From Bilabrum cf. latius (lineage: Eukaryota), in assembly GCA_965178125.1 (NCBI GenBank), contig OZ237765.1:434001-498000 (forward strand): a stretch of DNA of 64,000 nucleotides, written 5' to 3'. Position numbers and translations under genes: made by a program. A model generated the notes under the pieces. That model had not been told where the DNA came from. It did no database searches and saw only the letters and a program-made list of their open reading frames with translations. Positions 6,480 to 57,100 of the stretch are shown here, in pieces (within the stretch, counting starts at the first letter, position 1; the number at the start of each line of letters is the position of its first letter).

Positions 6480-9400
6480 TTAGACCAAGCTCTCGACGCT
6501 GGGCTGCTGGAGGCCCTAATCAGCGGGCTCTGACCCAGACCCGAACAAAAATGCCTCTAGCGCAAGATACAGCGCATCCAACAGCTCATCATGAAACAGT
6601 GACTGGAGGCTCCGCGCCTCGACAACCTGCTGCAGCTGTGCCCGAGGCATCGGTCGGTACGGAAGCGCCCACGGCAGCCGGTGATCGAACAAATCCGCGT
6701 TGGCAGCTATTCCAGGGGAGCTCGCGTTGTTCCTCCAGACATCATCGAAGAATACCATCCACACCTGTGCCACGGGACTCAAGCACAGCATCTTGGCGCG
6801 TGCGAAAAGAAATACAAGACCGTTTGCATGCTGCTCGCACATGTCCCACAGCAAGCTCTGCGACTGCCTCTCGAATACGTGCTTCCTCAGCGTACCAGGG
6901 GTGCACGACAGATTCTTGTAGATGTATACATACAGCTCGGGGTCCATCAACTCGTCGTTCTCCTTCCGCCTCTGCATCTTTCGCAGACGCATGCGGGACA
7001 GCAGGCCGGACACGGTCGCTGGAAGCCTCTGCTGGATGAGTAGCTGGTTGTCAGGGTCAAAGAGAATATCGCGCAGGGGCTGCGTCACGTTGAAGGCTGG
7101 GAGAATTTCCAGCTCTTCATGGCTGAGCAACGCCTGGCAGTCGTCCAAGACGACGTGCCGCTTGGTGTGCGGTGCCAGTGCGACACCTTTGCCCTCGGTC
7201 ATGTGCAGGCTAACGCCAAACCCAGGACTTGATGGATCGCCGGCCTTCCTTCTCTACAACCGGAGCATCCCATGGGAATAGTGCACATCCACCTGCACCG
7301 TTGTCTGTCGCAGCAGCGTACGCGGCCGCAGCGTTTTCTAGTCGATGTAGATCTCTTCGCCGTCCTCGACCACGTGGGCCTCCGTCCGGTTGACAGAGTA
7401 TCTCACTTCGCACCCGTGCAGCGCCCTTATTTGTTCCCTGACCTGTCTCCGTGCCACGATGCCGTTGTCTACGTTCCTTGCCTTAAGTGCACCCAGATCC
7501 CCGTCTCGAAGCAGAACGTGCGCGTTGGCATCGTCGTACGTGATGGTGCAGCGGAACGGCCAGGGGTCCACTCGCATGGACCCGAAGCAGCTCTTGCTCG
7601 GCTGGGTACCGTCGTCAAGAGAACCGTCGTAGAAAATGTCGGGACCCTCTGCGTGCTACATCACCCATCGACGGAGCGAGCGGATCCGCGGAACGAGGCT
7701 ATTGGCTGCGTGGGACCTTGCAGTGTGATCCCCGCCAGCCTTCTTTACCTGCTCCTTAATCTCCCGCCAACGGTTGCCAAGCTCCCTGCCGTACGCATAC
7801 CCCAGCAAGGCGTCCCAGAAAGAGAACCAGAACCGCCTCGGTATCTCTCTTGTTAAGTCCCAGCCGAAACCAGCTAGCGCCAGCCGGTGCGCGTCCGTGA
7901 GACGCCATGCGCCCAGCGCACCCGGCGTCTCTTGCATGGGCTGCGCAGGCAGCGCAACGGAAGCAACAGACACCCTACGCGAGTGTCGTCCTAATGGCGC
8001 ACCTGCATGCGCTGCAGTCGCTAGGCTCGCATCGCTAGCAGTCGAACCAGCTCTTTCACCATGTGTCACTATATCTCTGGTATTGCTGGCGGCTTCGTGG
8101 GCATCATATGCACCCCCTATCGCATGTATTGTACCGTGTGCACCTAGCTTATCATCACTTGTTAACGGTGACTTTGGCGGGTCGTTTGCCCTTCCGCTGT
8201 GCCGACTAGCCGACACTGCCACAAGAACGTCTCCAGAAACAAGCTGGTCAATACCCGTGCCGAACAGAGAGAACCTCAGCCTTGAAAGCCCAGTTGCGTG
8301 CTCCAGCCTGGCCCACTCTCTCGGCGTTACCATCGCTGCGGCAGCGAGCCCCTGCATCACCAGCAACAGCATCAAGACCGCGGACACGATGAGCCCAATC
8401 AGCACGGCTCCTGGCGTGCTTACTTCGTACGCGAGTGGCAAGCTAGTGCGCTGGTAAGGAACCACGGTCGCAAGCAAAAGGGCCACAATGGCAAGGATGG
8501 CTGCTCCTGCTCCCTCCACGAGTCCCACAACGGGCTGCCTCCGACATTTTGGCACCCGTACATCGTACTCGCTGCCAGGTCGTACGCCGCAGTGCGTGGT
8601 GCAGCAGGAACAGTAGCAGCATCGAGGCATGGTCTGCGGGCAGCAGGCACCCGCACATCGATCACCGCACCGCCGTTCACAACCAGTGCACCAGCACTGC
8701 AGCAAGTCAATCCTCACACCACCAGAACCGGCGTAGCCTACCAGAGCGCGCACTCCCAGAAGGCCGGCGGCCATCACGAAGGCAGCTGCAGGTGCCGTGT
8801 GCAGCCCCTCAGTGAGACCCAGAAGAATGATGAGGTAGGCCACTCTGGCAACGGATGCATACTTCCAGCGCCTATGGTACTCACTGTACAGCTGCGCAAA
8901 TGGTGACTGAAGCGAGGCTGAGTCGGACGATAGTGCCTCCAGGTACGCCTGGTCTAGGAAGGAGTCTGCGCGCCGCTGGGCAGCCTGCATGCGCTGCATG
9001 GCCCGGAGGTCGTGCTTCGGCTACTAGCTGAACGTAGTGTTGGCGGGAGAGTTCGCAACCGGGTCAATCGCTCTTGGTGGGACCGCATTGTGGGACCCGC
9101 CAGACCCTGCAGTTCTCCTTGATCCAACATTTGCTGCCACTGATGTGTGAGGGACGCTGACTAGGCTTCGAGCTATGCTCCCCCCATCTTCTCCTTCGAT
9201 TGACCCTTTGCTACGATTTGTTACATTCTACGCACCCTTTGCATCGTCTTCATCAAATGCTGCATCGAACCCGATCGCGCTGTCAACGTCGACGTCTTCA
9301 GCCTGCGACTCGCCGCCTTGTGCGGCGGCAGCGGCGGCAGCAGCAGCGGCTTCAGCTTTCTGTCTCGCATCTGCTTCTTCTTTGGCAATCGCATCTGCAT

Positions 9401-12356
9401 GACCCTGTACCGCAGCTGCCGCACTGTCAGCTGCAGCGTTCTGAATTGCCTGCCTCATGCTATCAGGCAGTGGGGGCAGATCCTGTTCGCTTGGTGCGCT
9501 GGCGTGGATGCCGAAACACATGTAGATTGGCACCGCCACAGCAACCAGCAGCAGAATAATGGTGGCAGCAGGCAGGTAGGCCGCCTGATACGTCTCTGAC
9601 AGTAAGCAATCGCACTGCCACTGCTCTCGAAACGGACCTTTCCTACTTCCTGACGAACCCGGCCTACCTTCAATCAATTCCACCACAGCCGCGTCTACAG
9701 CCTGAAGATCTCTTTCAGAGTCCAGCAGCAGCTGCATGGTAGACACATCCGAAGGGGCGATGTAGGACACGCCTGGGAACTGTGGCAGGCACGCAGCAGG
9801 TGCTGTCTCTCGCATCACGTCCAGGTAGAACCGCAGCACGTCTGGACTGATGCTCGGGCTGGACGTGCTGTTATCCTGGCTGTTGGATGCTGCTGCTATT
9901 GCCGCTGCAGCCGCCACGGCATCAGGGTTGTCCTGCTCGAAAGAGTTCAGACCCACGCCGCCGCTTGATCGCAGCACTATATCGCGGCCGGTGCGTGCAT
10001 GGCACGACACTACATCAAACGACTCCCTTGCGGCTGCAAATGCCAGCACTGCCACGCACGCTGTGACGAGCATCCTAAGAATAGAAACCATCCATTCATA
10101 CTTGGGAGAGTACACGGGTGTGGCGGTGGCATGCGGAACAGTGCCTGGGTTGCTTTCGCCAGGGTCGGATGACGAGACTCGCCTTTGCCTGCCACGTGTG
10201 CTGACGTCAGTCTCGTGCGCAGCGCGGATTTCCTCGGCGGAGGCAGGCTGGATGCAAAACTCAGCCACTCCCACAAAGATGGCTGCCAAGAGAAGCACAG
10301 CCAACAAAATAAAGAGAGTCGGAGCCTGCCCCCAGCGGAAGGCAGGGGCAAAGTCAAGCCCTGTCGCCGAAGCCACGCCGCCCCAGAACGCCATGTACCC
10401 AGTCCCAGTTCCTGCAGATGCTGGCCGTGTCAGCAGTACGCCAGCAATTTGCCACGTCTCCAGTACTGCCAATCCCAGCCCTGAGGCACCCAACCGGTAG
10501 CAGCACGGCCAGGACCAGATCATAGGGTTGAAGGCACCGCTCACTCTGCGGAGGATGCTGCTGACCGAGTCTTGCTCGACCGTTGGTGGGCCGCTATTGT
10601 CATCGTCTCTAGGTTCTTCTACAACGGATAAACCAAGCTGTATCTTCGGATTTCTTGGGGCCGCAGGAGCATCCGCAGGACGGAATGCATTGCTAGAGTC
10701 TGGCTCTGGGATTCTCAAATACCCGTCCATGCCTACAGGGTCCGGGCTGGCAGGCCGGGACGGAACCGCGAGCGCGTCTTCGAACGTGACCCGCCTGCCT
10801 CCATGGTCCTCCTAAAATCCACGTTCCTTGACTCCATCATACGCTAAACCCTTTGCGTCAGACGCAGACGCCAGGTACACCTCGTCGCCTTCCCTCCCAA
10901 CCAGCAGCCCCTCTCTCGAGTCTAGCAGGGGACCAGGCTCCCAGAACTGCTGCTGCTGTCGCTGCTGCTGCTGCTGACCAGAGTGATCGCCAGCTTCACC
11001 ATCGATAGTGTCGAACTGATTGTCCACACAGGACCTCTAATCAGGTCGTCGGGCGGCCGCAGGGGTCGCAGGGTACATTGTCTCTCGTAGTCTGCCGGGC
11101 GACGGAAGGTCCATCTCTAAAATAGAAAATCGGGCCCTCCTAGCGGGACTCAGGGCACTTTCCACCTCATGCCCAGCAGCTGCTCCCGTGATCTGATCTG
11201 AGTCATGCTCGGTGGGTCCCCCCACTCTCGGCGATGACGGCTAGTCTGCGCCCATGGACGGTGCAGTGTCGGGGTGCATGCTGTTGGAGAGTGATGCAGC
11301 GCCGCCTTCCATTGTGACCGCGGCGTCATCTGTACTGACCAGTTGGCTTGCCTCATCGGAGGCTGCACCGGCCTGCTCTGCTGTGGCAGCGCCGCGTTGT
11401 TCCCTGGGTGAGGGGGGCTCTGGCGCGTTCCTTTGCATCGCGTGCACGTCGTCTTCAATTTGCTTGAGGTCGGCAGACGGCAGTGCCACTGCTTTCTCGA
11501 TGGGGGGGAACCTCGTCCCACTGTTGCCACCGCTTGCATCGATGCCGTGGGCGATGCTGACACCGCTTTCCGTCCCCCCTCCGGTAGTCGAAGTGCCCCC
11601 ATTGCTGTTCCTCTCTCCCGGCCTTCGAGTGCCGCTGCCCCCTCCTTCCCTTCGTCTTGGGGGTGGTATTGGCGGGCGCTTGGAGGGCGGTGGGGCCCCC
11701 CTGCCACGACCAATTGATGTGGCCGTGGCATAGGTGCCCACTGCTGCAGGCATGCTTGAGACGTGCATGCGAGGTGGGGGCATGACGGTCCGACTGGTGT
11801 TCGTGCCAGCTGCGCCCACACTCGTCACACCAGATATATCAGCTCGATGCACGGGTACCTCGGCCTATGCCGATGCTCTCCTCCCTGATTTTTCTGGAGG
11901 TCCCCCGCTGGCGTCTTGCGCTGCCAGTGATGACCCACCCGCGGCGAATCGTAGCGCCGGCGGTCTCACCTTGTGCTGATCGACCGCGTGGCTTCGAGGA
12001 TTCTAACGAAACAGCGCAAGCCCGCTCGGGGGCAGGGATGGCATTGTTGGTGTGAGTACTGGCGAATACGAGTCTGGTGGTGGGTGGGTGTAAACGTGAG
12101 TGTCAAACGGCTCCCACCTTGCCAGCTCTTTGCACCTGCGACCAAGCCATCCAAGATGAGCGTCGAGTGCGACGCTGGCACTGGCCGATGCAACACGAGC
12201 AGCACCGTTCCTGTCAGCGAGCTAATATTTGTCAGCAGAAAATTCACTGACAGACTCATGAACACTATCCTCGAGCCGCGACGAGGACGAACCGCTGATG
12301 CGATCTCTTTGCTTGCCATCCGTTGCACTCGGCACATTCCTCGTGCCTGGGCTCAT
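6480..12356 (-). CDS. Large multi-pass membrane protein (~1950 aa), function unknown
   Basis: Minus ORFs 11241..11852, 11037..11225, 10812..11027, 9228..10730, 7656..8999, 7338..7577 and 6516..7202 are one frame broken only by about 13 TAGs. Several hydrophobic helices and a globular C-terminal domain. TAA stop at 6480. Start ATG 12356 is tentative. Confidence 0.75.
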
Positions 12357-12669
12357 GTCCTGCAGTACATGGGCAATACTTGATGCCCTATGTGTTTCAC
12401 GATCATGATGCTCTGTGATTGCAAGGCTCGGCCAACCATGTTGCTTTGCAGAGCCTGAACCAATTCTACCTTCGATCACCCCAAGCCGTGACTGTGGTCT
12501 TGGGAATGACTTTCCTGGCAGCATTGCCATACTTGGACGAACAGTATAACTTAAAAGTATATCATTTGATCCAATTATTCTCAAGCCTTGGCCCCTTTCA
12601 ACAAGTCTAATGCAACTGCCGGTGCGCAACGAGTCTGTTGCAGCATCGTGCAGTGCAACTCGGGCAAAG

Positions 12670-15600
12670 TCAGAAAGCAGACCCTGGCAGGCTAGCGTGC
12701 GCATTGGAGTACTCTCCCCCGTTTGCATCAGTCTCCCAAGCTTCCACCACGCCGCCCGTGACATTGTCACTATCATCAGTTCCCGTCACCACGCCTGCCC
12801 TCGCAACGCCCTTGTCCTCCGTTTCCTGCCGCGCCTCGTAGATGGTCGCGGGCGCGGCAGAGTCGACTGAGGCCCGGCTGGCGCGAGCTGTGCCCTAAAT
12901 CGACGGCAGAAAGCCGTCAGAGAGTCTCTCGACCCTGCCACCGTGCGACGCAGCAGCATCGCTGCCATAGCCCTCCGTAGCGCCGTCCTGGCCCGGCCCC
13001 TCCAATTTGTTCTCCCTCGACCCGGAGCCACGTTCCCCATTGCCATCGAACCCGTCGCTCGCCATCCCAATGCTTCCGAACGGTGAGGGTGTCAGGAGCT
13101 GCCTGACGCTCTCCGACCCGTGATCCACGCTCACGCTGTACGACCGGTGCTGCTGCTGCTGCTGGTTGCTGCCGGACGAGATTCCATGGCGCTGCCGCGG
13201 CTGCCTCTGGTTTCGACGACTGCCTCCGCTGCTCCCCCCCGTGCTCGCACTTGCCGCCAAAGAACCGATGCTTGCGTCAGCTCCGTCGCCCGCGTAACTC
13301 TTGGACTCTCGTACGGGATGCACCCTGTGCTTCCTTGACCACGAGGAACGGCGAGGCAATGTTCTGGTATTGCTTGGCGAGGATTCCTGCCTTCTCGCAG
13401 CTCCTTCGCGCATCTTTTTCTCTATTTCCATCCATGACGCGGTACTGCCAGTGTGAATGGCTTTGAGCGATTTGTTTGACACCACGCTGGCGGCCCGCCC
13501 CGGTCCCGGCGCTGCACTTCTGGGCGACTTGCCATCAGTGCTGGCTGCAGTGACTACCTGGCTGTGCGGCTCCTCCGTGTCCTGCTGCCTGGAGCCGGAC
13601 TTCCTCGGCTTGCGGGGTTTTCCCTTTGAGTTGTACAGGTCGACGATGGACCCGGACTTGGAGTTGGTGCGGGACTAGGACCTGCTGTTGGAGCTAGCGC
13701 CGATGCGAGTCGCACCTAGACCTGTCGATTTCGTGAACCGCGCGAGGTCGAGGCCCAGAAGGGCCCGCCTGCCCAGGGTCAGGGCCGGCGTGGCTCCCGC
13801 TGCCACGCACGCGATGACGGTCAGGGCCAGCGTTTGTTCCCTGGGAAGCTCGTCCAGCGCGAACAGCGTCATGCCGGCCAGCAGGGCGCACACGGTCTGC
13901 ATGTAGAGTGCGTAGGACATCCACTGCGACTCGCCCTGCTGGCTGTTGACGTTGCGGGTCACCACCGCGAGGTACACGGTGAAGCCGATGATGCCAGCGT
14001 TGAACACCAGCCAGATGCTGTTGAACACGTTGTGATGGGGCCCGTCGCATACGAGGTGCGTGATCATGGGATCGCTCTGTTCCTTGATTTCAAGGAGACT
14101 GGAAGGAGAGACGATGGCCCACGCTCCCAAGATCAGGGCCTCGATCAGCGCCAGCACACCCACCACCGCCAGCATTCCCATCTCGGAGAACTGCACCCTT
14201 CGCAACGACGGGTTGATGTGGATCTTGATGAGAAGCCGGAACACGCGAAACGTTTTAGCCGTGCACACCCCGAACATGAGCAGGAAGGACAGTGTGACCG
14301 CGGCTCGGCGCACGTCGCACATGACTGGCGTTGGCGGAATAAACCGGAGCATGGCAGAAGCCAAGAGGCCGAGGGCACCGACACCGATGGTGACGGTGAA
14401 GCGGGGCTGTGCCCGGCTCACCGCCTTGCTGCTCCATGCCCAAATGTACGCGCCCGTGGACAACAAGGCGATGCAGCCCGCAAGCCCAACCAAAGTAAAT
14501 ACGGCGTATTTCTGCCCCTCTGTGAGATGCCTCGTTCCTGTCGTGCACTTAACGTCAAACCGAACCCTTAGGATCCTGGATGAGTCTGAAGAGTTGCTCC
14601 CGAACCCGCTTCCGGAGTCGCTGCCCGTGCCATCGTCCCCGCCCACACCCTGGTCTGCTGCTCGCACCCAAAGCTCATCGTACCCGGAGCCGCATTGTTC
14701 GCCGTTAGGCACGTACGTTAGCACGATCGCAGTCTAGTTCAGCTCCCCGATTGTGAGCGACTGCTCCTTTACAACCAGCGCTTCCTCATCGAAGGAGCGA
14801 CCCTCGGCCGTTTGCGTGTACACCGACTACATGCGACGAAGCCCGGCTCGGCCACCCCGACCGCCGCCTCCACCACCCCTGCCTCGTCCCGTGAAGGACC
14901 CGCGCCATCCGCTGTCCCTCGGAAGTATGACCTGGCTCGGCCCAAGGGATGCCTGCCCGTCCATCTGGAGCTGCCTGCGGCCAACCGCCCTCGCCTCCAC
15001 GGCAGCAGCCACGGCATCCGAGGCAGAGGCCCACAAAGAATCGTCCATTCCATCGGATGGCGATGATCCGCTGCCGCCAGCGGACATCAAGTCGCCGTCA
15101 GCAGCCAGCCCGATGGCTTCTGCAAGCGCGTTCTGGTCGAGGATCGAGCACGCCGTCACAAAATCGTTCACGTGACTTCCTGTCAGCCCGAGCGTCTCAG
15201 CGTACGAGGCTGCATCCACCTTCAAATTTAGTGTTGTGTTGCGAGCCATGGGCTTGGACATCGTCAGAGTCCCGAATGCTGGCTCCTTGACTACGTCGAA
15301 CCGCAGGTCTCCCTGCCGGACGTCTGGGTCCTTGGCACGAAGCATGAGTGAGGCCCCGCACCCATCGAGGGCGGACTGGATCTAGGCTCTATCGTACACG
15401 GCTGTGTCGATATTTCCTTGTGTAAAGATGCCCTGTGCCGTGCCTGCCTACAGTGCAGTGCACTCGTCCGCCTCTACCCGCGCGGACAGCCTCCAGGCCT
15501 CGGTCAGCTCCCCGTCGTCGAGGTCGTCATGCCCGTCCTCCTAGTTCTCGATCACTGCGATGGTTGCGTTCACCACCGACTCGCCGATGAGGCCTCCCGT

Positions 15601-18600
15601 GGCAGCAGAGGCAGGCAGGGTCCACGGGTTGAGCAGCACGGGGGGGTCGTTCGTGGCCTGCACGTTGAGCTGCATCTCCTTGCACGGGCGCTGGGTGCCT
15701 CTGAACTCCGAGTCGAACTTGCAGTCGTTGGTGGCGTATACCAGCCTGTCCACGCCAGAGTAGTCGGGGTCTGGGAGGTATTTGACCCAGTACACTGCAG
15801 GCGGGGTCCCCACTAGACCTGCCAAGCTCCCACCGCCGCTTGTTGCGATCTGGCCCCCCTGAGACCCGCCTGACCCTGCCCCGCCCGAGGAGCCCCAATC
15901 GCTGGATCCATCGGCCCCCGAACCGACGTCCGTGACTCCGGTGCGCGTGCCGGGAGTAAAGAGTAGCCTGCCAGGCGGTGGCATACGGGTGCCAACCAGC
16001 AGCACCGCATCAATCTGTGGAAATGTGTTCCCCAGCGTCGCCTGGCTGCTGGACAGCGTCAGGTCCAGCCGGACTTGAGAGGTGGGGAATGGGATGGAGC
16101 ACATGCGGGGGCTAAAGATGCGCGCCGTGCCGTCGTCCCGCACCTCCCGCTCCCCCGACCAGGCTGGGATCCAGGTGCCGTCCGGGTGCCGGAAGCTGAC
16201 CCGCGTGATGTGTCCAGTGAACCACGTCTCGTATACGTCGATCCCAGTGACGTACACCCGCTCCCCGAACTCAAGCTCGAGGTACTCGGTGACGGATCCC
16301 CCTGACGGTCCCCATGCCTTGGGCGAGTCGCCATAGGATGGGTACGTGTTCGCAGGCCCAAGAATCTGCTGAGGGCTCCATTCGCCGGTCTGCCCGCCAA
16401 ACGAGGAGCTGTAGTAGAGCACTCTGGTGGCCCACATGGTGAGTATGGAGCCCTGTGCCGCTGCCAGATCAATGACTCTGGTGGGCGCAGTAAGCGGGTT
16501 CTGGTTCCGGCTTGACGTCATGACCTGCTCGAACCTGCCGAACAACGGGGCGGACACGATGTCGAGCATCACCAGCGAGTCCTCAATGGAATGCTGCTCG
16601 AGCTTGAAAAAAATGCTGCCGTCTTCCTCCACCTGGATGCGGTCTGCAGGGCACATCCCAATGCAATTGCGCGCCAGCCACTCGTCCTCTGCCGCCTGCT
16701 ACTGCAGCGATAGGCCGGTGATGTTCTGAATCAGCTGAGTCATTGCCGGGCACTCGCCCGGCGTCGGTTGATCGTGGACTGCTACCACAGAGAAGGTCAC
16801 GTTGGCTGGGTCGGAGGTCATTCCAAGCTCGTCCCGAAGCCTAAACGAAATCGTGTCCATGTTCTCCCCACTGCGGTCGGCAGGAGGGACGTAGGCCACG
16901 CTGCTTCCCAGGGCGGACACATCCAGGGGCAGGTTGTCTGCGACAATCTGAACACCTCTAGTACCGTCGGCCAGCACCTGATAGAGCCCTCCGGTGTTGG
17001 GCACTCTGATGATGATGGCCGTGACCTTCTGCCCCTCGGTGTCTGCCTGTACCATGATGCCGCCTGCGCCTATCTCGCCCGCCTCCCCGAGCCCGATGAA
17101 CGTTGTGGAATCCTCAAAGACGTCGACATGCAGGTTGGAGGCCACTGGACGCTCGTTGTAAAGCAGCAGAAGGCGCACCACCTCCACCTCCGCAAGCCTC
17201 GTGCCAATGGCCGAAGATGGGGAAGCGCCGACGAGCACGGGCGTGCCAAACGCCATCGTGTCAGTTCGTTGCGCACTTGTTGCGAGACTGCCACCTGAGA
17301 TGTACCGCATGCGAATGTACCCCTTGTCATCGCTCTCTAGCACGTCTCCTTGCTAGACGGCCCGGCCGGAAAACGACGCGCCCTGGCCGTTCTGAATGGC
17401 GGTGGAGACTTGCGTGACGACGCCGTGCGACGGTAGGCTAGATACCATCATACGGTACCGAATGGGTAGCAGTCGTATGTTGAACACGGTCTGTCCTCCC
17501 GAGTAACCCTGCACGATTGCGATGGAAGTGGACGTGTTGGCAGTTACGAGGTTCCCCAGCGCATCCGTGGACAGTCGGGTGTAGGCCGGAGACAGGGCGC
17601 CCACACCATCCCTAGCATTGGCCTGTAGCCCGCTCCTCGACGGCACCTTTGCTGTGCTCTTCCCGTCGAATCGGAGGTTGTTCACGGGGCGATACTGCAC
17701 GAAGTCGCTGCCCATGGAATCGCGTGTCACGTCCTTCCGAAACACAGTGCCCGACCTGCCGTTGAGCGACGAATCCGTGATGTTAGAGATGAGCGGCTCG
17801 TCGAACCTCCACTCTAGAAGCAAGTGGTCCGCTAGCCTCCAAGGGACGTTCCTTTGTGAGTATATGTCCAGGACGTCCTGGGCCGAGAGGGCGGTGCTGA
17901 AGACGCGCACGTCGTCGATTTCGATGGAGGATTTCTGCTGCCAGCGCTGCCGGCCCACGAATACGTGCCCGCTTTGCGCCCTCCTGTTGATGTTTCGGAG
18001 CTGTGCGGTTGTTTTTCTTGGGTGTACCTGCGTGTCGATTCTGTCGTCGTCGAGATAAACGCTCGCGAGGTTGTTTCCCTAGTCCCAGGCGAGCGTGAGC
18101 AGGTGCCACTCCTTCCGCTCAAACAGAGTGGCGTTGTGGAACTGCATCCGAATGCCGTCAAACTGCGGTGCGGGCACGTGGAACTAGTTTCGAGATATTT
18201 CCAATCTGCCATTACACATTGTTTGCTTTCATAGTCTGGCAGTGTGTGAAACCGTTGGCATGTGCCGGGCGACGGTAGAGACTCAGAACGGCTCACCTCC
18301 AAGTAGAGAGTATCATAATGGTACATTGCCATAAATACGGTCTCTTGCTCTGGAGCGCCCAGCTAACCAAACGGTGTTACGCTCAGGTCTCCTTGAGGCG
18401 GCTGGAACTCGACCTGCGAAGAAAAGCACCGCAGTGACAACGCCTCGAGTCAATGCCTTGGCTTGCATGTAAACGTGCTTTGAGATACATGACTTACTGG
18501 GTTATTGACCACCTGGAAAAAATGCGAATCTTGCCCGTCCACAAGGGGCCGGATGTACATTTGCACCGTAAACGACTGGCGCGGCCAAGCCATTGTCTGA

Positions 18601-18839
18601 TCGGAGGCTACCCATGACTCGCCGAGCAGCTGCACCCGTGAGAGTGAAAATCCCCAAAAAATATAAAATCGGCATTATTGATAATTCATAATTGCCTAGC
18701 CTCCCTGCGATACCGGTCTCACCTGCATGCAGAAGCCAGTATCGAACTCCTCATCGTAAGAAAACTCCGTTGCAGCAGCTGCATCGATGGCAAGGAAGAG
18801 CCCGAGCAAATATGCCGACACATGTAAAACCAATCGCAT
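12670..18839 (-). CDS. Class C (7tm_3, GABA-B-like) GPCR with signal peptide, LamG-like, cadherin/Ig-like and pappalysin/FBXL4-like ectodomains
   Basis: Signal peptide MRLVLHVSAYLLGLFLAIDAA then GTGAG donor. LamG-like WHLLTLAWD...IDDVRVFSTALS. 7TM motifs RAQPRF, CTAKTFRV, YLAVVTRNV..ES. Frame from about 18140 to 12670 is broken only by TAGs (18079, 17353, 16699, 15541, 15448, 15382, 14827, 14734, 13675, 12895). TGA stop at 12670. The 5' introns are not fully resolved. Confidence 0.85.
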
Positions 18840-22200: not shown

Positions 22201-22884
22201 GTTCGACGAAACCTCGTGTTTGCGCTGGGCTGGCTGCCTCTCGTAGAGGAAGGCGCCGGCGCCAAGATGGCTCCGCAATGCCTCAAGTACTGCGTCGAGC
22301 ACTGCAAGAGGACCGACACGATGAATTCCACGTCGCACGCCATGGTAGATAATGCTGTCAGCTCGGTGCTCCGCGTTTTGCGGACGTTTCCCTCGGCTGG
22401 CCCAGCGGACAAACTGGTAGAAACTGCAGTGTCTCAGCTCCCGCTCAGGGTTGACTTCTCGGAAGCAGGCGAGATTCTGAAATCGATGGTGATGCTTGCT
22501 TCAAAGGGGATCGGGGCAGCGAAGAAGCACCTGCCCCGAGCACTCACCGAGGCCGCTCGCATGATTTCCGAGTCGGTGGTTGTCGAGCACATGCCCAGAA
22601 AGTACAAGCTTGTCGCGCTGCAGACCATCGCCAAGTTTGCGGAGCAGTCGTCGTTTGGTGCAGTGATCGGACAGTGCTCCCCTCAGGTGCAGGCGGTGGT
22701 GCGGGCCCGCCTAGATCTCGTCAAGTCGTTGGGTCCCCATGCAGCCATCGATGCTGCCTTGCCAGAGTCGGCCGTGACACCAGCCGGGAGTCCAGTGAAG
22801 GGTGGGGCGGGAGGTGGGTGGGGAGCCAGCAGCCCCGGGGGCGCGTCTGCTGGTGGGTCTCCTGCAGTGGGCGGAGGAAGGTGA
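19203..22884 (+). CDS. Importin-beta family karyopherin, importin-4/Kap123-like (HEAT repeats)
   Basis: IBN_N-like VRHMAAINLRK..W, WPELL, HEAT motifs DKHPAVRASFCYCIGALS and VRRNLVFALG, DNAVSS. Intron 19677..19809. In-frame TAG at 19491, 19509, 19641, 19650, 20530, 21274, 21982. TGA stop. Confidence 0.85.
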
Positions 22885-23040
22885 TAGTCGTCAGTGAAGT
22901 GAATCGCGAGGTAAAAAGTGTATATCATTGCCAGGGGTCTTCTCCGTTTCGATCCAGAGATCCGGGGTTCCGATCGGAGCAACACTGAGGCATTTACGAA
23001 CTTACCAATCAAGGGCTCGTGCAACCAGTAAACAGGAGCA

Positions 23041-34006: not shown

Positions 34007-35311
34007 ATGGCTGCTGTCGCTGGTGCTTCGAAGGCTGACGGTGATATGAAGGGTGCTCTGCTCGGTATGGGCAACCCCTTGCTTGATATCTCGGCGGAAG
34101 TGCCGATTGAGCTGGTCAAGAAGTAAGGCAGCGTCACGCACATTTTGCTTGCACTTGTGCAGGGTGAAATGATCCTTAATATGTCGCAAACGTGCCAGTG
34201 GTGTACTATATGATAATTCGTACTTTTCGCAACTATTTGCAGGTACGGACTCGAGATGAACAGCGCATGCCTGGCCGAGGACAAGCACGTGCCCCTGTGT
34301 GAGCATACCAACACCTTTGCATGTTTTATGCACGTGCCAGGAAAGCATGATGTTCGTAACCACGTTGATTAATTGATAATCTGCCTTCAGATTGCCCCCT
34401 TCTATCCCACAGACAAGGAGCTGGTTGAGGATTTCCCCAAGGTGCAGTACATCGCTGGCGGTGCCACCCAGAACACCATCCGCGTGGCCCAGTGGATGAT
34501 CGGCAAGCCCGGCGTGACCTCTTACATCGGCTGCATCGGTAAAGACGACGACTTCGGCAAGCAGCTGCGCAAGTCCGCCACCGCCGACGGAGTGGCCGTG
34601 CACTACCGCGAGGACGCCGAGAAGCCCACGGGCACCTGCGCCGTGCTCATCAACGAGAAGGAACGTTCGCTGTGCGCGAACCTGTCGGCCGCGAACGAGT
34701 ACAAGATGGAGGACCACTTCAACACGGAGGAGATCCAGGCCGTAGTGAAGGCCTCCAAGGTGACCTACTCTGCCGGCTTCTTCCTGACCGTCTGCCCCGA
34801 CGCCATGGTGGCTGCGGGCAAGCTGGCGGCCGAGTCCACGGACAAGGTCTTCTGCTTCAACCTGAGCGCTCCCTTCCTGTGCCAGTTCTTCAAGGAGCAG
34901 ATGCACCAGGTGCTGCCCTACGCAGACTACGTGTTCGGCAACGAGAGCGAGGCCGCTGCCTTCGCCGAGGCGAACGGGTTCAAGGGCGCCACGGTGCCCG
35001 AGGTGGCCCTCAAGATCTCCATGCTGCCCAAGGCCTCCGGGACCAGGGGGAGAGTGGTGGTCATCACACAGGGATCGGAGCAGACGGTGATCGCGAAGGA
35101 CGGCAAGGTTGTCACGTACGACGTGCCTGCCGTGCCGGCCGATGAGATCGTGGACGTGAACGGCGCGGGCGATTCCTTCGTGGGTGGTTTCCTCGCCAAG
35201 CTGCTGGAGGGCGCTGATTTGGCCGAGTGCGTGCGCGCCGGTCACTGGGCGGCAGGCGTGATCATCCGTACCTCGGGATGCGTGCTGCCCGCCAAGTGCG
35301 ATTTCGCCTGA
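34007..35311 (+). CDS. ADK: Adenosine kinase (PfkB family)
   Basis: GMGNPLLDISA, AGGATQN, TGTCAVLI..ERSLCANLSAAN, FNLSAPF, FGNESEA, DVNGAGDSFVGGF. Two 5' introns. No TAG codons. TGA stop. Confidence 0.97.
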
Positions 35312-40288: not shown

Positions 40289-40353
40289 CCAGCAAAAGCT
40301 TGCCCTGGTGCGATCATAGATCCAATTTTTGGCTTTTTGGGTTTTTAAACCGA

Positions 40354-43939: not shown

Positions 43940-43944
43940 CCCTT

Positions 43945-44264: not shown

Positions 44265-44272
44265 GCGGTCCA

Positions 44273-45100: not shown

Positions 45101-48100
45101 ATGTGTGGCCTCGATGCAGGATCCAGTTCCTCCACTGGACGAGTTGCAATTTTTGTTGCAATCGCTGCTGTGGTGGCTGCAGTCGGGGCATGGAAGGAGG
45201 CTTGCATTGCCGCCATCCTGCGCAACGTTGGAAGCCTTTGGACGTTTCTGCCCATGCTATCCTTCAGCGACGAAGGAATCATTTTGCTTCCATTATTACT
45301 TGCCGTATCGGTCCTTTTTACTGCTGGCGTCTGGTTTGTGGTACAGGCGCACAGGGCAGGAGTGGTCAAGGCCATATTGGACCAAATCATGGGACCTTAT
45401 CGTCTTGGCAAACCATTGCTAAAAGACGCCATGCAAGGGGCTTTAGAGGATGCGGTGCTTCTTACCTTTGCGCAAACTGCGCTTCGCATTATTTGGTCCT
45501 GGGTGCTGGCCGAGTTCGCCCCAAAGTGGAGCCTCGCCGCGTGGCATCCTGGCGCGTTCGGGGCCGCCCGCGAGGACGACCTCCTCGCGCCTGCTGGTAG
45601 CGCATCCATCCAGGCCGGACTCGAAGATATTGACCGGATTGAATATGCGCCTTACAATCACGGCGGGATCGGGTCAAGCACCGCCGCGACGGTGGCCGGC
45701 GGGTGCTTGCACGCTGCCTGCGCGCTGCTGGTGATCGGCATCGACACCAAGTTCTTCCAGGCGCAGTCGCAGGCCGGCGCGGAGCTCGACGTCCCGGGAC
45801 ATGCTGATGATGCCGACGAAGAGGATCGCGGTGGCAGGCGCGGTGAGGATGCTGGGGATGGCGTGGACGGGGGCACCGAGGGCGGGCACGAGGCGGGCAC
45901 GAGGGCGGCGGCAGCGGGCGCGGCCGCCTCCGTGTTCCGGTTTGCGGTAGAAACAGCAAGCCTGCCTGGTGTGGCTTTCGCTTGCCTGGCGTTCGCGCAG
46001 GGCTTTGCGGTGCTGCTTCCGGTCTGGCAGTGGGCTGGGCTCAGCTTTGCGCAGTGCTTCGTGCTGGCGTGCTCGTACGGCCTGCCAGTCACTCTGCTTG
46101 GGTACATTTAGATTCGCACGCTGGAGCTGGCCAAGGAGTACATTGCAGAACAACGGACGCTAGACAGCCGCCGTGTTGCCACGGAAGCCGTGGGGGAAGA
46201 CCCGACGGCCGGGATGTCGGTGGCCGGCTCCATCAAGCACACTCTGCTGTGGGTCGTGGGTCTGCGGCGCGGAGGCCACGGATACGACCAGTGCTCGATG
46301 CTCTGCGGCGCCGGGTAGCTGGCCAGCTTCACGCGGTATGCGGCTGTGAATGCCGTGCTGCTCACCTCTTCGTGGTTTGTTCTGAGCAGAGCAAGCTCGT
46401 TGGGTGCGGTTGCACTGGGCTCTGTTGCGATCGACGGGAAGTGCTCCCTCTCCGATGCCACGATCGCGCGCGTGCAGCTGGGCCTGAACCCAGACACAGT
46501 GGCGGAGCAGCAGCTGCGCCTCCGCAGCAACGATGGTGCGGCAAGCTTGCAATGCGCGGGTATGGACCCGCATGAAAGCCTCATGTACACGCGGGAATCG
46601 ACAGACTGGGACAACTAGGCATTCCCTGCTGGCGGGCGTTTCGGGGGCAGGCATGGCATCAGTGGCAGCGGGCGGTTAGGTGGCTCTCGGTACTCTGGCG
46701 GTGCATACAACGGGCAGTCCCAAAGGGGCACAGAGAAGTTTCTGCAGGCACTGGCGCGCAAGCAGTCGCTGTCACCGAGCACCACGGTGACGCTGCCCTC
46801 GTGTCTCGTGTCCGCGTATCGCGACGAAGAGAGGCACGCGAGGGCTGCGGTCGAGGAGAAAATGCAACAGAAGCTGGAACACGAGTAGCAGGCCATGGGC
46901 TCCGACCCCATCTACCAGCAGAGGTACCGCATCGTGATCAACAGGCTGGGTCTCGAAGCGGACCAGCAGAGAGAGGTGGAGGAGGCAAGCCGGCAGGAGA
47001 TGGTGCGCCTGCAAAACAGGTTCCGCGTCTTGCACAGCCCGATCCTGTCTGACCTCGGCTGGAATCTCACGAGGCATTAGCAGGTGCTCATGGAGGAAGC
47101 ACCGAGTCTGCGGAGGCGGGTGCTGCCCGGCCGGCCAGCGCCCAATCCGCGGGATTGTCCCAGCGCAGGGCCTGTTTGGCTTCCAGCGAGATGGAGCGAT
47201 TACCAGGCCAGCGCTCCCAGTTTCGCCAGCGTGCAAGCTTGCTTCAACGTGACCAGAGAGGTGGAGGAAACCGTCGAAACGACGCGCCGCCTGGTCACCA
47301 GGAAAATCAAGCTGTCCCTCCCACGGCTGGATCCTGAGACCGGTGAAGAACTCGACCCGCCAGAGGTGGTAAAGGTGGTGGCCCACCTCTCGCCAGAGGA
47401 GATCAACCGTGCCAAGCAGGGCCTCCTCGGTTCAGTCGAGGCCTGGAGGCTTGTCAGAGAGTCGGTAGATTTAGACGGCAATCCAATTCCAAGGTTCGAG
47501 CCAGCCGTCTAGACAGAGTTGCACAACGTCACTACTCTAGAGTGCAGGCACGGGCAGGTTGCGAGCCCGCGTGCGGACCTGCCTAGCCAGCCCTTCCATT
47601 TCATGGGGCTGCCGTCGCTAACGGGTGGGCTCGGTACAGTCGTGGTCATCCCGCTGGTCTCTGACCTCGTGGAGATTGTGGCTGTCCTGCTCCCCGTCCT
47701 GTTGCTGCTCGTCCTGATTCTGTGGTATGCTCACGCCGTGTACATTCTGTACCTGCACTCCTCGATCCTGTATCTGGAGGTGGAATCAATCAGAGTCGAC
47801 ATGGGCTCGCTATCGATGGAGGAGTCCCCTCGGCTCGACTCGTTGCGCTCTTCGGCTGCTGAGACGGTATTCCGGTGGCTTTCTGACGCCATGCATAAAG
47901 CCTACCAGCAAGGCAGGGCCCGATCGGATGCGCCCGGCCCGACCGAGGCGAGCGGTGTGGCCCGAGCTGAGGTGGAGCATCGCACTGGGGGGGGCAGTGA
48001 AAATGGCGCAATGCATGGAGGTCCCGAGAGGCGCGCTGCAGCTGCACCTGACAGCAGGCTTTCAAGCCGTGCAGATCGCGCGACGGCCACAGACGTCACA

Positions 48101-50350
48101 GGAACGGTAGGCTCCTCGGCCGTGGGGAACGAGGCATCTGTAGACACACATTGGGGCGCCAGTTTTGGCATAAAGGATGGCCAGGAACTGAGCCACCTTG
48201 CCGCATCAGCTGGGGTCACGTTGCATGGGCTGGTGACAGACGTGCGGCGAGTGATGGGCGGCAAGCAACACTTCATCTTTCAGGCGAGGCTACAGGTCAG
48301 GGTCCGCAACGAATCGGAGGCTCCCCTGTCCCTAGGAAAATGGGTCGTGGAGCTGTTCCAGCACTACAGAGGTAAGCCCGCTGCTCGGCTGGTCCGAATG
48401 GACGTGGATCCTGTCGATGTTCCTGGCAAGTCTGACATTGCAAAGATGACCGCAGGCGGGGATAGCGATGGGTTTGTGGAAGTCGCTGTGCCTGTCAAGG
48501 TCGACATGAAGCTGCCAGGATTTGACACGGTTCAGGCCGTGGCTGGACAGCTCGTGAGGGGCGGGCATGGCAGGGCTCGGCACGGCGACTCGACCGGAGT
48601 GGTGGTTCGAGCCACGTACGATGCAGCGCCAGCGTGGGGCATCCGGTACGGGATCAACATACTTGACACTCGCTCCGACACGTCCTCGAATCTCTTTAGC
48701 GCAATCAAGGCGCGAGCTCGCGATGCCTCGCGTGATGAGAGCCTGCTGTTGGCAGCCGCCGACAAGGTCCGGGCATACTCTGAGGAGCTGCAGCACGAGG
48801 TAGGCAAGTCGATGCTTCCCTCCGGTCCCACGCGCAGTACAGCCAACAGGAAAGAGGTCGCCGCGCAGCTAAGGCTTTACTCGAGCAAATCGCACCTGCT
48901 TGAACGCACGCTGCAGGCAATGAAGCGACGGGTCAGCGCAGCAATCACGAAGCAGACACGCAACCGGGGAATCGAGGGCCAGATGAGGCGCGTGCAGCAG
49001 TGCATTCGGCTGAAGGACCTGCAGTCGCTGCTGAACACGCTCTGGAAGCGGCTATCTGACTGCGGAGGACAGCAGGGCCGGCGTGGGCGCAGACGGGCGG
49101 ATGACGACGAGGGTGACGAAGTGGATGGGCACGGTGAGGTGGAGGAGGTGGTGCAGGGGCAGGTGCTGGAGGATTTGATGTACGGAGATGAGGAAGAAGG
49201 TGGCGCCAATGCGTGGGTAGACGTGTTTGGTCGTTGGATCGGGGGGCAGGAGAGGCGGCGCCGTGCCAGGGTGCTGATTGCGGGCGCACCTCAGTTCCTG
49301 CACATGCTGCGCGCGGCCGAGTGCATCAGCTCGATGCACCTGTGCGAGCGGAAGCTGGTCGAGTTGGAAGCACTGCCAGAGCATCGTGTGAAGACCGGGA
49401 GGCGGCTTGTGTTCGCGCTCTCGTCCATCATGCAGATGTACTACTCGACACTGGTCGCGGCTTTCCGAGAGAGAGCCGACCCGATGGAGGCGCTCGTAGT
49501 GAGCGTGCTGATGCTGTGCATGCAGCAGCTGGCTCTGCAGGACGGGCAGCAGTAGGAAGAAAACAGGGGCAAGGAAGATGGGGGAACACGCCAGATCGAA
49601 GGTGGAAATGGGGCTCATGCCGGCAAGACGGGCACGATCGAGGGTGGGTCTGCCCGACGCCATGGCTCAAGTGGAAGGTCAGGGGGCACGTGGGGAGGGC
49701 CTGATGTGGGCAAGGGCGCGGCAGTCGCTAGCCAGGACGAAGAGGAAGACGAAGACACAGACGTAGTTTTGGCTCGCGGTGAGGATCGACTGAGTGCATC
49801 CGGAGCCTGGGCGGGTGTCATCGACGAGCCGGCTGCCGGCAGTCCAGCTGATGTGCAGGCCTTGCAGATGGACCAGAGCGGCAGCCAAGTCGATCCAAAC
49901 CCCCACGGCGATTTTGCAGCGGACTTGAGCCTGTATGGTGCGAGCGCTGGCCTTGCACAAGATGAGATCAGCCCGGAGCACAGTCAGCCCAGCGTCCACC
50001 AGGCCGACAGCAGCGGCAGCAGAGCGAATGTCGGTGGCACAGCGAGCGGCATCCAAGTCGAGCACGGTGCCGGGGGTGAGTGGACTGCTTCGTTGGAACA
50101 GGGCCGTGGTGGGTCCGGGGATGCGGGGCAGTCGGTGTCACAGACGGTGCTCTCCCGTGTTGGATCAGATGGTCTGCCACCGGTCTATTCTGCCGGCGGT
50201 CCCAGCGAGGCCGCTGGCAGCGACGGTCAGAGTGGAGATGTGGAGGAAGGTGTGAGTGGCTAGGATGAGGATGAGTTGCATGTGGATGAAGTGGGTGAGG
50301 ATGAGGAGGATGAGGAGGATGAGGAGGATGAAGATGGGCATGGGGATTGA
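45101..50350 (+). CDS. Large multi-pass membrane protein (~1750 aa) with acidic tail, function unknown
   Basis: Plus ORFs starting 45101, 46346, 46895, 47084, 47519 and 49706 share one frame. Gaps contain only TAG (46109, 46316, 46616, 46886, 47078, 47510, 49553, 50261). TGA at 50348. Possible LEA_2-like beta domain near 48230-48650. Confidence 0.75.
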
Positions 50351-54044: not shown

Positions 54045-54142
54045 AGTCGAGGGGGGTGTTGAGCTGTTTGGAATTGCAGAAGGTGCAGCGCATTCAAGTT
54101 GCCAAATGAAATCTACGGATTCCGCCTGGTGCACTAGAGTCA

Positions 54143-57100
54143 TTACGATAGCTCTCGTGTAAGCACAGTCACGGACTCCACGTGCGGCGTCATCGGGAAC
54201 ATGTCCACGGGGCGGGTGCACATCGCTCGGAAACCAGAGCCGCCATCATGATCATCGGACCCCTCTGCTAGCACCCGCAAGTCCCTCGCCAGAGTGTTCG
54301 GTTCGCACGACACATACACCACAACGTCTGCCCTTGAGCGCAAGAGCCAGTCCCTTGCAGACTCTGTGAGGCCAGCACGCGGCGGATTCACAACGACGGC
54401 GAATGGTCGTAGCGGAGCACCTGCTTCGTGCTCGCCCTGCATCTCCATCATGCGAGCAATGACCAGCGGCACCTGCTCACTGCGAAGGTCGAGTTGCCTC
54501 GCCTTCACCCTGTTAGCATCCCCGTTTCTTTCGGCCACCCGATCGAATGCTCGCACGGACCCCGTCTCAAGCTCAAGGCCGAGCACTTTCGCCGATGGGA
54601 ACGAACGGGCGATCTGGTGTGAAAACAGGCCGGTGCCGCAGAACAAATCAACCACAAGAGGTGCACCGCTTCTGCTAGAACCCGAAGACGGTGCAGGTGG
54701 CTGCTACAGAGCCGAGTGCAGGCGACCGTGCGTATCCCAGTGCCATGCAAGGCTTGCGACCACCTCGCGAGCGAGCACGCTGGCACCGAGGGAATTCACC
54801 TGCGAGAAGCACCCGGCGGGGGCGTCCAGGACCAGAGGCGCCCTGGATGCCTTGATGCTAAAACCGGAGATAGGGGCAGCGGGCGCATGCCCCGCCCGTG
54901 CCTGCACACTGCCAGTGGCAGGCACTTGCTCCAGATCCCACGCCCCCACCACCTGGCGCAGACAGCCTGCACTGCTGCCCCTAACATCATTGATTTTGCC
55001 CCGGAGGTACTCTCGTCTCCAACTGATCATGTTTGTTTGCACTATTTCAGCGTTGGACATCGGAACTGTGACGGGTGCGGGCGCGACCAGAGGCTCATCA
55101 TCGCACCGTTCCCCATCGGAAACAGGGAACATCTTCTCCATGTGTCTCCTGTAGTCGCTTTCCCTCTCTTTTGGGATCGAGCGTGGCTTCCATCCGACCC
55201 GGACGAAAATATCACGGAAGCCTCCGCTGCCAGTGGCAGTGTGCTGCTGCTAGCCGCCAAATCGTTCACGAAGGGGCTTCACCAGCCTTTCTCCCAAGTC
55301 TATTTCTCGCTGAAATCTGAGAAAGGAGCTTTCATGCAGCCATATTATCACTTCTAGCGCGCTGTCCTCACTATGCTCGCTCTTGGTTTCAGCATGCGCT
55401 TGCTTGGTCCGGTTGCTCCTTGCTGCTGAGCGCTCCTAGTCAATCTTGCCCTCGTCCAAATCAGACCCGGGGAATCCCAGCTCTACTAGCGCTGCGTTTG
55501 CCACATGGTTGACATCGCGGCTGACCTTTTCTTTCCATGCCTATTCTGCGCTCGGGTCGTGCTGCAGCGGGACATACCTGGCGTGCTCGCTCAAAGACTC
55601 GGCATCGATCGATCCATCAGTCGCAGCAGCTGCGCTTGTTTCCGAGGAGTCTCCGGTGTTCGACACCTCGCGTATCTTGCCTTTGTGTACGGCATGCGTA
55701 GCATGCCATGCATGCACCATGGAACCAGGCGCGGAGGATGATCCTGCTGATGATGCTTCGCGCCCCGTGGACACCGGCAGCAACCGCCTGACGGGCGCGT
55801 GGGCACTGGCTCGTTCGGCACTGCCATGCAGGAATCCAGCCTCCGTGACATCTGGCGAATGCATCACGCGAATCTCCACGCTTTGTATCATATCCAAGCT
55901 GTCACTGGGCTCTGCGGCTTCACTGCCCGCATTTGAGCTAGCGTTCGCAGACCCGCCACCACTGGCACTGAAGCCGTGTCTCGAAACCGAAAATCGGGAT
56001 TAGTTCTGGGATTAGTTGAGTGGGGATTCGATTCGAGACAAATTTCCGACGGATTAACTTGAACTGAGCCTGACATGGTTACATGAGCTGCTAAGGTAGT
56101 TTCAAGGCCATGAGTATTATCTTTGATGCTTACATTTAGTTTGAAGAGTAGTCTGGGTAAAGTTTGATGATGTTTTGATAGTGCCTGGACGCTTCGACTC
56201 GACACGTGCCACATTTAATCAAGAGAAATTGGGTTAGGGCTTTGGACTAGTCTGGCGTAAATCCCGTCGTGATAGATAATCTCATGTGTTCCAAAACACC
56301 AGGAGGCTGTGTGGTACCATTCTCACGGGCACCATTGAGCTGCTACGCCCTTCCAGGATTCCGTTCGAACCTCCCTCACGTGTCTGCTTGGGCACCTGCT
56401 TCTTTGTGCAAATTGATCGAACTCTACGACTATGTCAACGTAAAGTTGATTGTTCAAATTAATTAACGCAAGCAAAAGCACTAGCAAAAAGGCCTTCTTG
56501 CCGCGTGGTATGCTGGTTGAAGTTAATCCAGAAAATTTAATTCGAACCGAGCACGAAATTGGATTAAAATGTGCAATTTAATTATTAATTTAATCCGGAT
56601 TCGGAGTTTCGAGACAGCACTTGACAGCCCTTGCCTTCGCCTGCCCTCTCGCCTTGCGCTTTCGATTGCGAGCTGCCGACTTGCGGACTGCATCGGATGA
56701 GGACGGACCCACCCTGGTGCCTCGCAGAGCATCCCGCACCATCCCGAGAGCAACGCTCGCCCGTGGGTCAAGTAGCGTGCACTATTCGGGTTCGAGGACC
56801 TTGGGCAGGAACACGTCCCCGTGCGACCAAGGCATGTAGCCCAGGGCAGGGCCAGGACCAGTGCATGGATTTGTTTGCGCACGAGCACCTGCAGCGCCCG
56901 ACTAGTGTTCCCCCGATTCGCTGCCGCTTGCGCAACCCCCGGTCCGGCCAACCAAACCGCTCGCTGCATCAGGGCCGTCACCGGCTGCACCAGGGCCGTC
57001 ACCGGCAGCCATACCGGAACCGCCGGTGGCAATCCCAGTCGCATGGACCGGTAACCGGGTGGGCCGGGGTACCCACGGTTCCGCCGAGATGGAAAAGTCG

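Follow-up and report, generated by a model that had tools for sequence, protein, structure and literature searches.

Nuclear genetic codes of the NCBI table 6 type, in which UAA and UAG both encode glutamine (Gln), are used by many ciliates, hexamitin diplomonads, some ulvophytes, Streblomastix and Amoeboaphelidium, and context-dependent codes, in which a triplet serves as both stop and sense codon, are known from the Condylostoma, Blastocrithidia and Amoebophrya sp. Kv types. Coupled reassignment of UAA and UAG (together UAR) is by far the commonest nuclear variant (PMC5304391). A code in which UAG alone encodes Gln, with UAA and UGA as stops, was described for the nucleus of the fornicate Iotanema spirale from transcriptome evidence without tRNA genes, and was proposed to depend on a tRNA-Gln(CUA) and an altered eRF1 (T32G in the GTS motif) (Panek et al. 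2017, PMC5304391). UAG-only Gln codes are also described in the ciliates Hartmannula sinica, Trochilia petrani and Protocruzia tuzeti (McGowan et al. 2024, PMC11687900), and UAG is read as leucine (Leu) in the rhizarian exLh (PMC5304391), as Leu in phyllopharyngean metagenome-assembled genomes (MAGs) from TARA and as serine (Ser) in Scotinosphaera (PMC11687900). Within the portions of these two papers available, the mechanism put forward for UAG-only changes is a CUA-anticodon tRNA unable to read UAA combined with changes in eRF1, and the UAG-only codes described all retain UAA as a stop (PMC5304391, PMC11687900). Here we analyze 64,000 nucleotides of contig OZ237765.1 (assembly GCA_965178125.1, filed as Bilabrum cf. 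latius; positions 434,001 to 498,000 of the forward strand), hereafter the window, in which UAG most probably encodes Gln and UAA and UGA are kept as stops. The initial annotation of the window, made from the letters alone, held that UAG-only Gln had been reported in very few nuclear genomes; the code is less rare than that, given the three ciliates known besides Iotanema (PMC11687900).

We consider a code with UAG read as Gln, UAA and UGA kept as stops and UGA dominant to be the best explanation of the window, with a probability of roughly 80%. All codon and stop counts given below come from this single window, which is eukaryotic nuclear DNA of 59% G+C, densely packed with genes and with few, short GT..AG introns. 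Under the standard code the open reading frames (ORFs) of at least 300 aa sum to 8,793 aa, a figure that rises to 22,520 aa if only TAG is opened and to no more than 10,158 aa if only TAA is. Searches of Pfam and PDB, made with TAG as a sense codon, identified V-ATPase subunit B, a class C G-protein-coupled receptor (GPCR), an importin-4/5-like protein, an adenosine kinase, a MORN protein, ribosomal protein S12e, a leishmanolysin-like peptidase, an RNA methyltransferase of the RumA/TrmA type and several large orphans. The Pfam/PDB-supported genes for V-ATPase B, importin, GPCR, methyltransferase and leishmanolysin are open only if TAG is read through. Neither tRNA genes (ARAGORN) nor matches to Rfam families were detected within the 64 kb. 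The features on which the argument leans are these:

4609..6319, plus strand: V-ATPase subunit B, 539 codons, intron 4906-4996, TAGs at 4837-4839 and 5096-5098, TGA stop; supported by Pfam, PDB and spliced RNA contigs of runs X5, X6 and X7.
6480..6482, minus strand: TAA ending a 2101-codon ORF, the only clean case of a TAA terminator in the window.
6483..12785, minus strand: large membrane protein (orphan), 2101-codon ORF 6480-12785, coding sequence (CDS) model of up to 2098 codons, 13 TAGs, TAA end.
12670..18839, minus strand: class C (7tm_3) GPCR, 1952 codons, signal peptide, 11 TAGs, TGA at 12670-12672; Pfam 7tm_3 with E 1e-25.
18163-18296, 18412-18495 and 18630-18722, minus strand: three introns in the 5' part of the GPCR gene, skipped by RNA contigs.
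19203..22884, plus strand: importin-4/5-like protein, 1182 codons, intron 19677-19809, 7 TAGs, TGA followed by TAG; supported by homology and by spliced contigs in three runs.
25871..28399, minus strand: orphan ORF, 842 codons, bounded by TGA, 6 TAGs, no TAA.
45101..50350, plus strand: orphan ORF, 1749 codons, TGA on both sides, 8 TAGs, no TAA, coding score +260.
54140..54145, minus strand: tandem TAA-TGA ending the RumA/TrmA-type methyltransferase, TAA at 54143-54145 and TGA at 54140-54142.
54146..58083, minus strand: RNA (uracil-5) methyltransferase in at least two ORF pieces, 54146-55999 (4 TAGs) and 56593-58083 (6 TAGs).

Across 14 coding segments (13,234 codons) the reading frame contained 81 TAGs and neither a TAA nor a TGA, which bears out the initial annotation's remark that dozens of TAGs stood against no internal TAA. 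Frames 2 and 3 of the same segments contained 37 and 41 TAAs, 217 and 263 TGAs, and 97 and 77 TAGs, respectively; TAG is equally frequent in and out of frame, whereas TAA and TGA are strictly excluded from the frame. The four CDS models with RNA support (V-ATPase B, 539 codons; importin, 1182; GPCR, 1952; large orphan, up to 2098) yielded 33 TAGs, no TAA and no TGA. The coding segments had initially been cut with TAA as a stop, and the check was repeated with TGA as the sole stop. Read in this way, the ORFs at 12670-18228 (1852 codons), 45101-50350 (1749), 25871-28399 (842) and 52479-54245 (588) were free of TAA, and in the other genes TAAs were confined to the edges, that is, to RNA-supported introns or untranslated flanks. 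As these TGA-bounded ORFs lack TAA, its absence is not an artefact of ORF cutting. The initial annotation had cautioned that low usage of A-ending codons could hide rare sense TAA, but codon bias is not a sufficient reason: the CAA:CAG ratio of 88:436 in the coding segments predicts about 16 in-frame TAAs (16.3) if TAA and TAG were used alike, and none was seen (Poisson P(0) ~8e-8), although for one 64-kb window the 95% upper bound is about 3 in-frame TAAs per 13,234 codons and not zero. In an annotation-free test, which scored stop triplets for coding-like codon usage over 60 codons on either side, both flanks were coding-like for 67 of 965 TAGs, 5 of 558 TAAs and 8 of 1771 TGAs, and the single TAA of this test without a nearby in-frame TGA (18677) lies inside an RNA-supported intron. 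This test groups TAA with TGA, away from TAG.

The ends of the genes agree with this division. TGA closes 16 of 18 ORFs and TAA the other 2, a ratio that is approximate given that several of the 18 are without homology or RNA support, and UGA is the dominant stop in the window, as had been noted at the outset. That UGA does nearly all of the terminating is as expected from a genome of 59% G+C. None of the 18 ends requires TAG as a stop; these ends were defined with TAG as sense and are blind to genes ended by TAG. The two TAA ends are where the initial annotation had placed them, on the minus strand at 6480-6482 and 54143-54145, and the second is, as it had said, ambiguous, with TGA at 54140-54142 directly behind. 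The C-terminus of the methyltransferase aligns up to residue 450 of the 454 of a solved bacterial homolog (5xj1), which places the end of translation at TAA-TGA, with either codon a possible acting stop. At the first end the evidence is more specific. The 97 codons between the TAA at 6480 and the next in-frame TGA (6186) score -0.215 in log-likelihood ratio per codon, below all 201 sliding windows within the ORF (minimum -0.176), G+C falls from 0.59 to 0.47, the stretch contains three TAGs and a second TAA, and readthrough would enter the antisense of the V-ATPase gene. Homologs of this gene end within 15 aa of the TAA point in 48 of 115 cases but run at least 80 aa past it in 21, so that C-terminal homolog length supports the end at 6480 only mildly, and an X5 RNA contig that ends at 6429, 51 nt beyond the TAA, adds a weak hint, contig ends being unreliable. 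UAA as a probable stop is well supported for this one gene and consistent with the rest of the window. The initial claim that UAA still looks like a stop is thus in keeping with the absence of TAA from the frame and the collapse of coding signal after 6480, with a single clean gene end to draw on.

Four public runs were aligned to positions 4000-23900 of the window, one of DNA (X1) and three presumed to be of RNA (X5, X6 and X7); the latter are not on record as RNA and were treated as RNA-derived because their contigs are spliced. X1 provided one colinear contig over 4000-23900. The X5-X7 contigs skip GT..AG introns in the genes for V-ATPase B (4906-4996) and importin (19677-19809) and three in the 5' part of the GPCR gene, and apart from these introns they showed no difference to the window, TAGs included. 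As the TAGs are unchanged in spliced RNA contigs, they are neither edited nor intronic. An unspliced RNA contig spans 6429-11547 of the large orphan gene, likewise with no differences, and among the aligned runs (4000-23900) no strain differences were found at stop codons.

To identify the residue encoded by UAG we turned to close relatives. Searched in full with HMMER, the final 1200 aa of the gene that ends at 6480 gave 275 homologs, among them short ORF fragments with 91-95% (P0126, P0134, P0155 and P0171), 64-71% (P0127, P0170, P0183 and P0196) and 52% (P0204) identity, and a search with the GPCR gave two matches, P0279 (96%) and P0278 (77%). For these relatives the standard code was evidently applied in gene calling, and their proteins come in broken pieces. 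Where they extend across a TAG of the window, Gln was found opposite 18079-18081 in P0279 (96% identical, LAWD-Q-GNN), 15541-15543 in P0278 (77% identical, VIEN-Q-EDG) and 7656-7658 in P0127 (71% identical), and two further TAG sites face proline and lysine in P0127, giving Gln at three of five sites and never Leu, Ser or glutamate (Glu). The breaks themselves are informative about the residue: the TAGs at 9228-9230 and 6516-6518 coincide with ORF breaks in relatives, and nine clean fragment ends fall on CAG of the window in five cases (P0155, P0170, P0127, P0196 and P0279), on TAG in three (P0134, P0183 and P0278) and on TTA in one (P0126, possibly a contig end), with the ambiguous ends of P0171, P0175, P0195 and P0204 left out of the count. 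Five of the six ends that do not fall on TAG therefore lie on a Gln codon, with P ~6e-7 for a Gln codon frequency of 4.0%.

The surroundings of the TAGs fit the same residue. CAA or CAG occupies 14 of the 162 positions next to a TAG (0.086), close to the 0.079 found next to Gln codons themselves and above the mean of 0.040 (P 0.006); the same statistic is 0.044 for Leu and 0.032 for Ser. There are four TAG-TAG doublets, TAG also occurs within runs of CAG and CAA, and a distant ankyrin-like copy on the minus strand (38759-39616) has TAG where a tandem pair of paralogs has CAG. From close relatives, comparison at the protein level settles the sense of UAG as Gln, in line with what the initial annotation had supposed. 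Other searches added nothing: a metagenome scan with the last 1000 aa encoded by the 6480 gene yielded 95 pattern matches, none of which was confirmed; with the C-terminal 121 aa of P0052, at least five metagenomic loci were found which, at just 45-52% identity, were not used; and a protein search with the importin at E 1e-20 gave no match. The columns of distant homologs (V-ATPase B, orphan domain, importin) were also tried as an identifier of the TAG residue and dropped as too variable.

TAG occurs about 6 times per 1000 codons and makes up about 13% of all Gln codons, and its density is lower the higher the G+C at third codon positions (GC3). Per 1000 codons, the genes for adenosine kinase (GC3 0.88) and the ribosomal protein RPS12 (GC3 0.80) have 0, those for V-ATPase B (2.3), importin and leishmanolysin 2-3, and low-GC3 orphans such as that at 2-3949 have 6-11, which suggests that highly expressed genes disfavour TAG among their Gln codons. 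The genes of this comparison introduced here are:

34373..35311, plus strand: adenosine kinase (PfkB) exon, GC3 0.88, no TAG, TGA stop.
58454..62131, plus strand: leishmanolysin-like peptidase with a tetraspanin-like C-terminal part, 4 TAGs, TGA stop.
62399..63040, minus strand: ribosomal protein S12e-type (L7Ae family), no TAG, TGA stop.

As a mechanism for this code, a tRNA-Gln(CUA), one anticodon change away from tRNA-Gln(CUG) and unable to pair with UAA, would decode UAG, and eRF1 would have lost efficient recognition of UAG while keeping that of UAA and UGA. A tRNA with a UUA anticodon would be absent, since its ability to read UAG as well would carry UAA into the same change. TAG codons would have arisen mostly from CAG by C-to-T transition and would have been kept out of highly expressed, high-GC3 genes.

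Several observations weigh against this interpretation. As to the stops, a working UAA terminator is seen at one clean end, the other being backed by TGA, and at the clean end 21 of the 115 homologs extend at least 80 aa beyond the TAA, so homology alone leaves the C-terminus of that protein unfixed. A TAG lies 12 codons upstream of the TAA, at or near which the fragments P0183 and perhaps P0204 end, and for that one gene this TAG could be the stop. The RNA nature of X5-X7 is a presumed type backed only by their spliced contigs. RNA contig ends were rejected as firm markers of 3' ends, because the importin contigs of all three runs halt within a G-rich tract (22795-22807), some 77 nt short of the TGA, where the assembly seems to have broken off ahead of the true 3' end. 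As to the residue, the relatives are seen as proteins alone, so that a break in them could mark a TAG, a TAA or the end of a contig. Among distant homologs, one TAG column of V-ATPase B has threonine in 86 of 120 sequences and the other has alanine, Ser, threonine or valine, those of the orphan domain are mixed polar, and those of the importin have Ser, threonine/Gln and Gln/Ser.

Among the rival explanations, the main survivor, which we regard as unlikely, is that UAA is neither a sense codon nor an efficient stop, being avoided and effectively unassigned, so that UGA would be the sole reliable terminator. It would suit the finding of TAA at only 2 of 18 ends, one of them with TGA directly behind. 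Yet the TAA at 6480 has no such backup, the next in-frame TGA lying 98 codons on, in the V-ATPase antisense, and coding signal collapses past it. Furthermore, TAA and TGA trinucleotides occur at 559:1778 (24%), so that 2 of 18 is not clearly low (P(<=2) ~0.15, a hand estimate), and retention of UAA as a stop is the rule in the UAG-only codes of the available parts of PMC5304391 and PMC11687900.

An ambiguous UAG, read as Gln within genes but as a stop close to mRNA 3' ends, in the manner of Condylostoma or Blastocrithidia, would make use of the TAG that precedes the 6480 TAA by 12 codons, at or close to which fragments from two relatives end, and of the TAGs found soon after the stop in the importin (TGA TAG) and methyltransferase (TAA TGA CTC TAG) genes. 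We find it very unlikely, as no ORF end of the 18 needs TAG and the C-termini anchored by homology, those of V-ATPase B (whose last residues are also the last of P0052) and the methyltransferase, are set by TGA or TAA; the breaks in relatives are uninformative on termination, since standard-code callers break their ORFs at each TAG.

Harder still to credit is a table 6 type code in which UAA and UAG both mean Gln and TAA is simply too rare to be seen in a G+C-rich window. Its appeal is that coupled UAR change is the commonest nuclear variant (PMC5304391) and that A-ending codons are disfavoured here (CAA:CAG 88:436), but that very ratio leaves some 16 TAAs missing (P ~8e-8), TAA is frequent within introns and out of frame (37 and 41 times), and it resembles TGA in the annotation-free test, with coding stopping at the TAA at 6480. 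That UAG is sense with another residue, Leu as in exLh, Ser as in Scotinosphaera, or Glu, is the least credible of all: the distant TAG columns, which are not dominated by Gln (threonine in 86 of 120 in one column of V-ATPase B; alanine, Ser, threonine or valine in another), would allow it, but close relatives have Gln at three of five TAG sites and never Leu, Ser or Glu, five of six of their non-TAG breaks lie on CAG of the window, and neighbour statistics fit Gln and not Leu (0.044) or Ser (0.032).

As to where the organism belongs, the best named matches of V-ATPase B are from stramenopiles and alveolates (70-75% identity). In a maximum-likelihood tree of this one gene (32 rows), the window and P0052, an environmental fragment 94-95% identical to it, form a long branch (0.75) that is sister to the clade of P0005 with support of 91/91; P0005 is labelled Symbiodinium sp. 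KB8 and falls in a 90% identity cluster with proteins of Cafeteria roenbergensis. We tentatively place the organism beside the Cafeteria-type clade of heterotrophic, bicosoecid-like stramenopiles. The nearest named relative in this tree being Cafeteria, a stramenopile, an independent origin of UAG=Gln, as the initial annotation had raised, is plausible. The best full-length homolog of the 6480 gene (P0128/P0276) is an uninterrupted protein of 1896 aa; it and P0004, a Cafeteria-type V-ATPase B, both list a 127,197-bp contig, and P0121 and P0127 both list a 6,009-bp contig, from which we infer that the convergent pair of V-ATPase B and large orphan (4609-12785) stays together in relatives as well. 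UAG=Gln would be shared by at least two other environmental lineages, whose proteins are 52-96% identical to those of the window in fast-evolving genes.

Over positions 4000-23900, the runs that match the window with no differences (X1 and X5-X7) are filed under three organism labels, and small shares of this DNA occur in runs labelled as algae and protist metagenome; a small flagellate living in the cultures of other organisms would fit as the source.

Further observations concern the genes themselves. The C-terminal 460 aa or so of the 2101-codon protein (window 6483-7900, minus strand) form a conserved domain with the 275 database homologs mentioned above and no Pfam family; 38 of these homologs have E < 1e-30, one of them a Phytophthora protein. 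The TAA at 56590 sits between the two methyltransferase pieces, presumably in an intron. Genes are packed head to tail at 54040-54145 (minus strand), where the first ATG of the next ORF overlaps the terminal TAATGA of the methyltransferase (TA-ATG-A); a start about 100 nt further on, with a signal-peptide-like sequence, is likelier. In the leishmanolysin-like protein the M8 domain continues into an extended C-terminal region that has at least four transmembrane stretches and a weak tetraspanin match, and in its Gln-rich tail a TAG lies inside a CAG/CAA run. The ankyrin-like tandem ORFs 41158-41922 and 43257-43853 (plus strand) are identical at 171 of 195 aligned residues, and both TAGs are kept in both copies. 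Three adjacent paralogs on the minus strand (30981-31985, 32007-32564 and 32841-33806) encode a small membrane protein with 64-77% identity over about 100-120 aa, the middle one being COPI_assoc-like (Pfam E 1e-9). On the minus strand, a single in-frame TGA (39617-39619) parts ORFs 39620-40384 (255 codons) and 38762-39616 (285 codons), whose coding scores are low (-10.7 and -0.9); an intron, a pseudogene or a pair of separate genes could account for this.

Taken more broadly, the results are compatible with a whole clade of heterotrophic stramenopile flagellates, uncultured or associated with cultures and sister to the Cafeteria-type bicosoecids, having independently made UAG a Gln codon while keeping UAA, with at least three of its lineages present as broken ORFs in public metagenomes, a tentative proposal to which we give slightly less than an even chance. 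If true, it would give stramenopiles their first change of the nuclear genetic code and would be the first UAG-only code in which UGA, and not UAA, carries almost all termination. UGA is the leakiest of the stops. Public DNA and RNA would then permit a direct look at the means by which eRF1 and a tRNA-Gln(CUA) keep UAG and UAA apart in a genome rich in G+C. Splits of UAA from UAG show that the translation machinery is able to distinguish two codons that usually change together, and each independent origin tests two ideas, that of a non-wobbling CUA suppressor tRNA and that of specific substitutions in eRF1. The trait appears to extend to relatives over a range of protein identity (52-96%), while a more distant relative has the unbroken 1896-aa ortholog, a series that could date the switch. 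Standard-code gene callers shatter such genes, as in the broken ORFs of the relatives in public collections, so the organism is easily misannotated or overlooked.

In comparison with known codes, the table 6 type resembles the window in that a stop has become Gln and TAG is a synonym of CAG, but it has sense TAA, which in the window is found at 0 of 13,234 codons against about 16 expected. In exLh, Scotinosphaera and the TARA MAGs UAG is likewise decoupled from UAA and a suppressor tRNA with a CUA anticodon is expected or found, according to the available text on these organisms; they decode Leu or Ser, whereas the evidence from the window favours Gln. Amoebophrya sp. ex Karlodinium veneficum, weighed as a possible source of the window, was rejected as it is AT-rich, has UAA as its most frequent in-frame stop and uses UGA in frame as well (PMC12005148, in the sections available). 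Searches of the literature, of incomplete coverage and including part of PMC12614181, found no report of a nuclear UAG reassignment or other nuclear code change in stramenopiles. The bicosoecid Cafeteria roenbergensis (70% GC, 1.7-1.9 introns per gene) is like the window in having the G+C-rich, compact, intron-poor nuclear genome of a heterotrophic flagellate, and the accessible part of its genome description gives a non-standard code for the mitochondrion only (UGA = Trp), with no nuclear change noted (PMC6972860).

The closest systems are those with UAG-only Gln. Iotanema is like the window, as we read it, in that UAG alone became Gln and UAA was kept as a terminator, and by analogy the mechanism we propose would be the same as that proposed there. 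The two differ in the primary stop, which is UAA in Iotanema and UGA in the window (16 of 18 ORFs), and in that the former is the transcriptome of a fornicate and the latter 64 kb of genomic DNA, with spliced RNA contigs, from a lineage tentatively placed on the Cafeteria side. The UAG-only Gln ciliates share the probable codon table of the window (UAG as Gln; UAA and UGA as stops), but in the data available from PMC11687900 their UGA ends just 1.7-13.1% of genes, UAA being the main stop, and their genomes have 27-54% G+C against 59% in the window. While the UAG-only Gln code itself was already known, what is new here is the unusual stop balance, led by UGA in a G+C-rich genome, and probably the host lineage.

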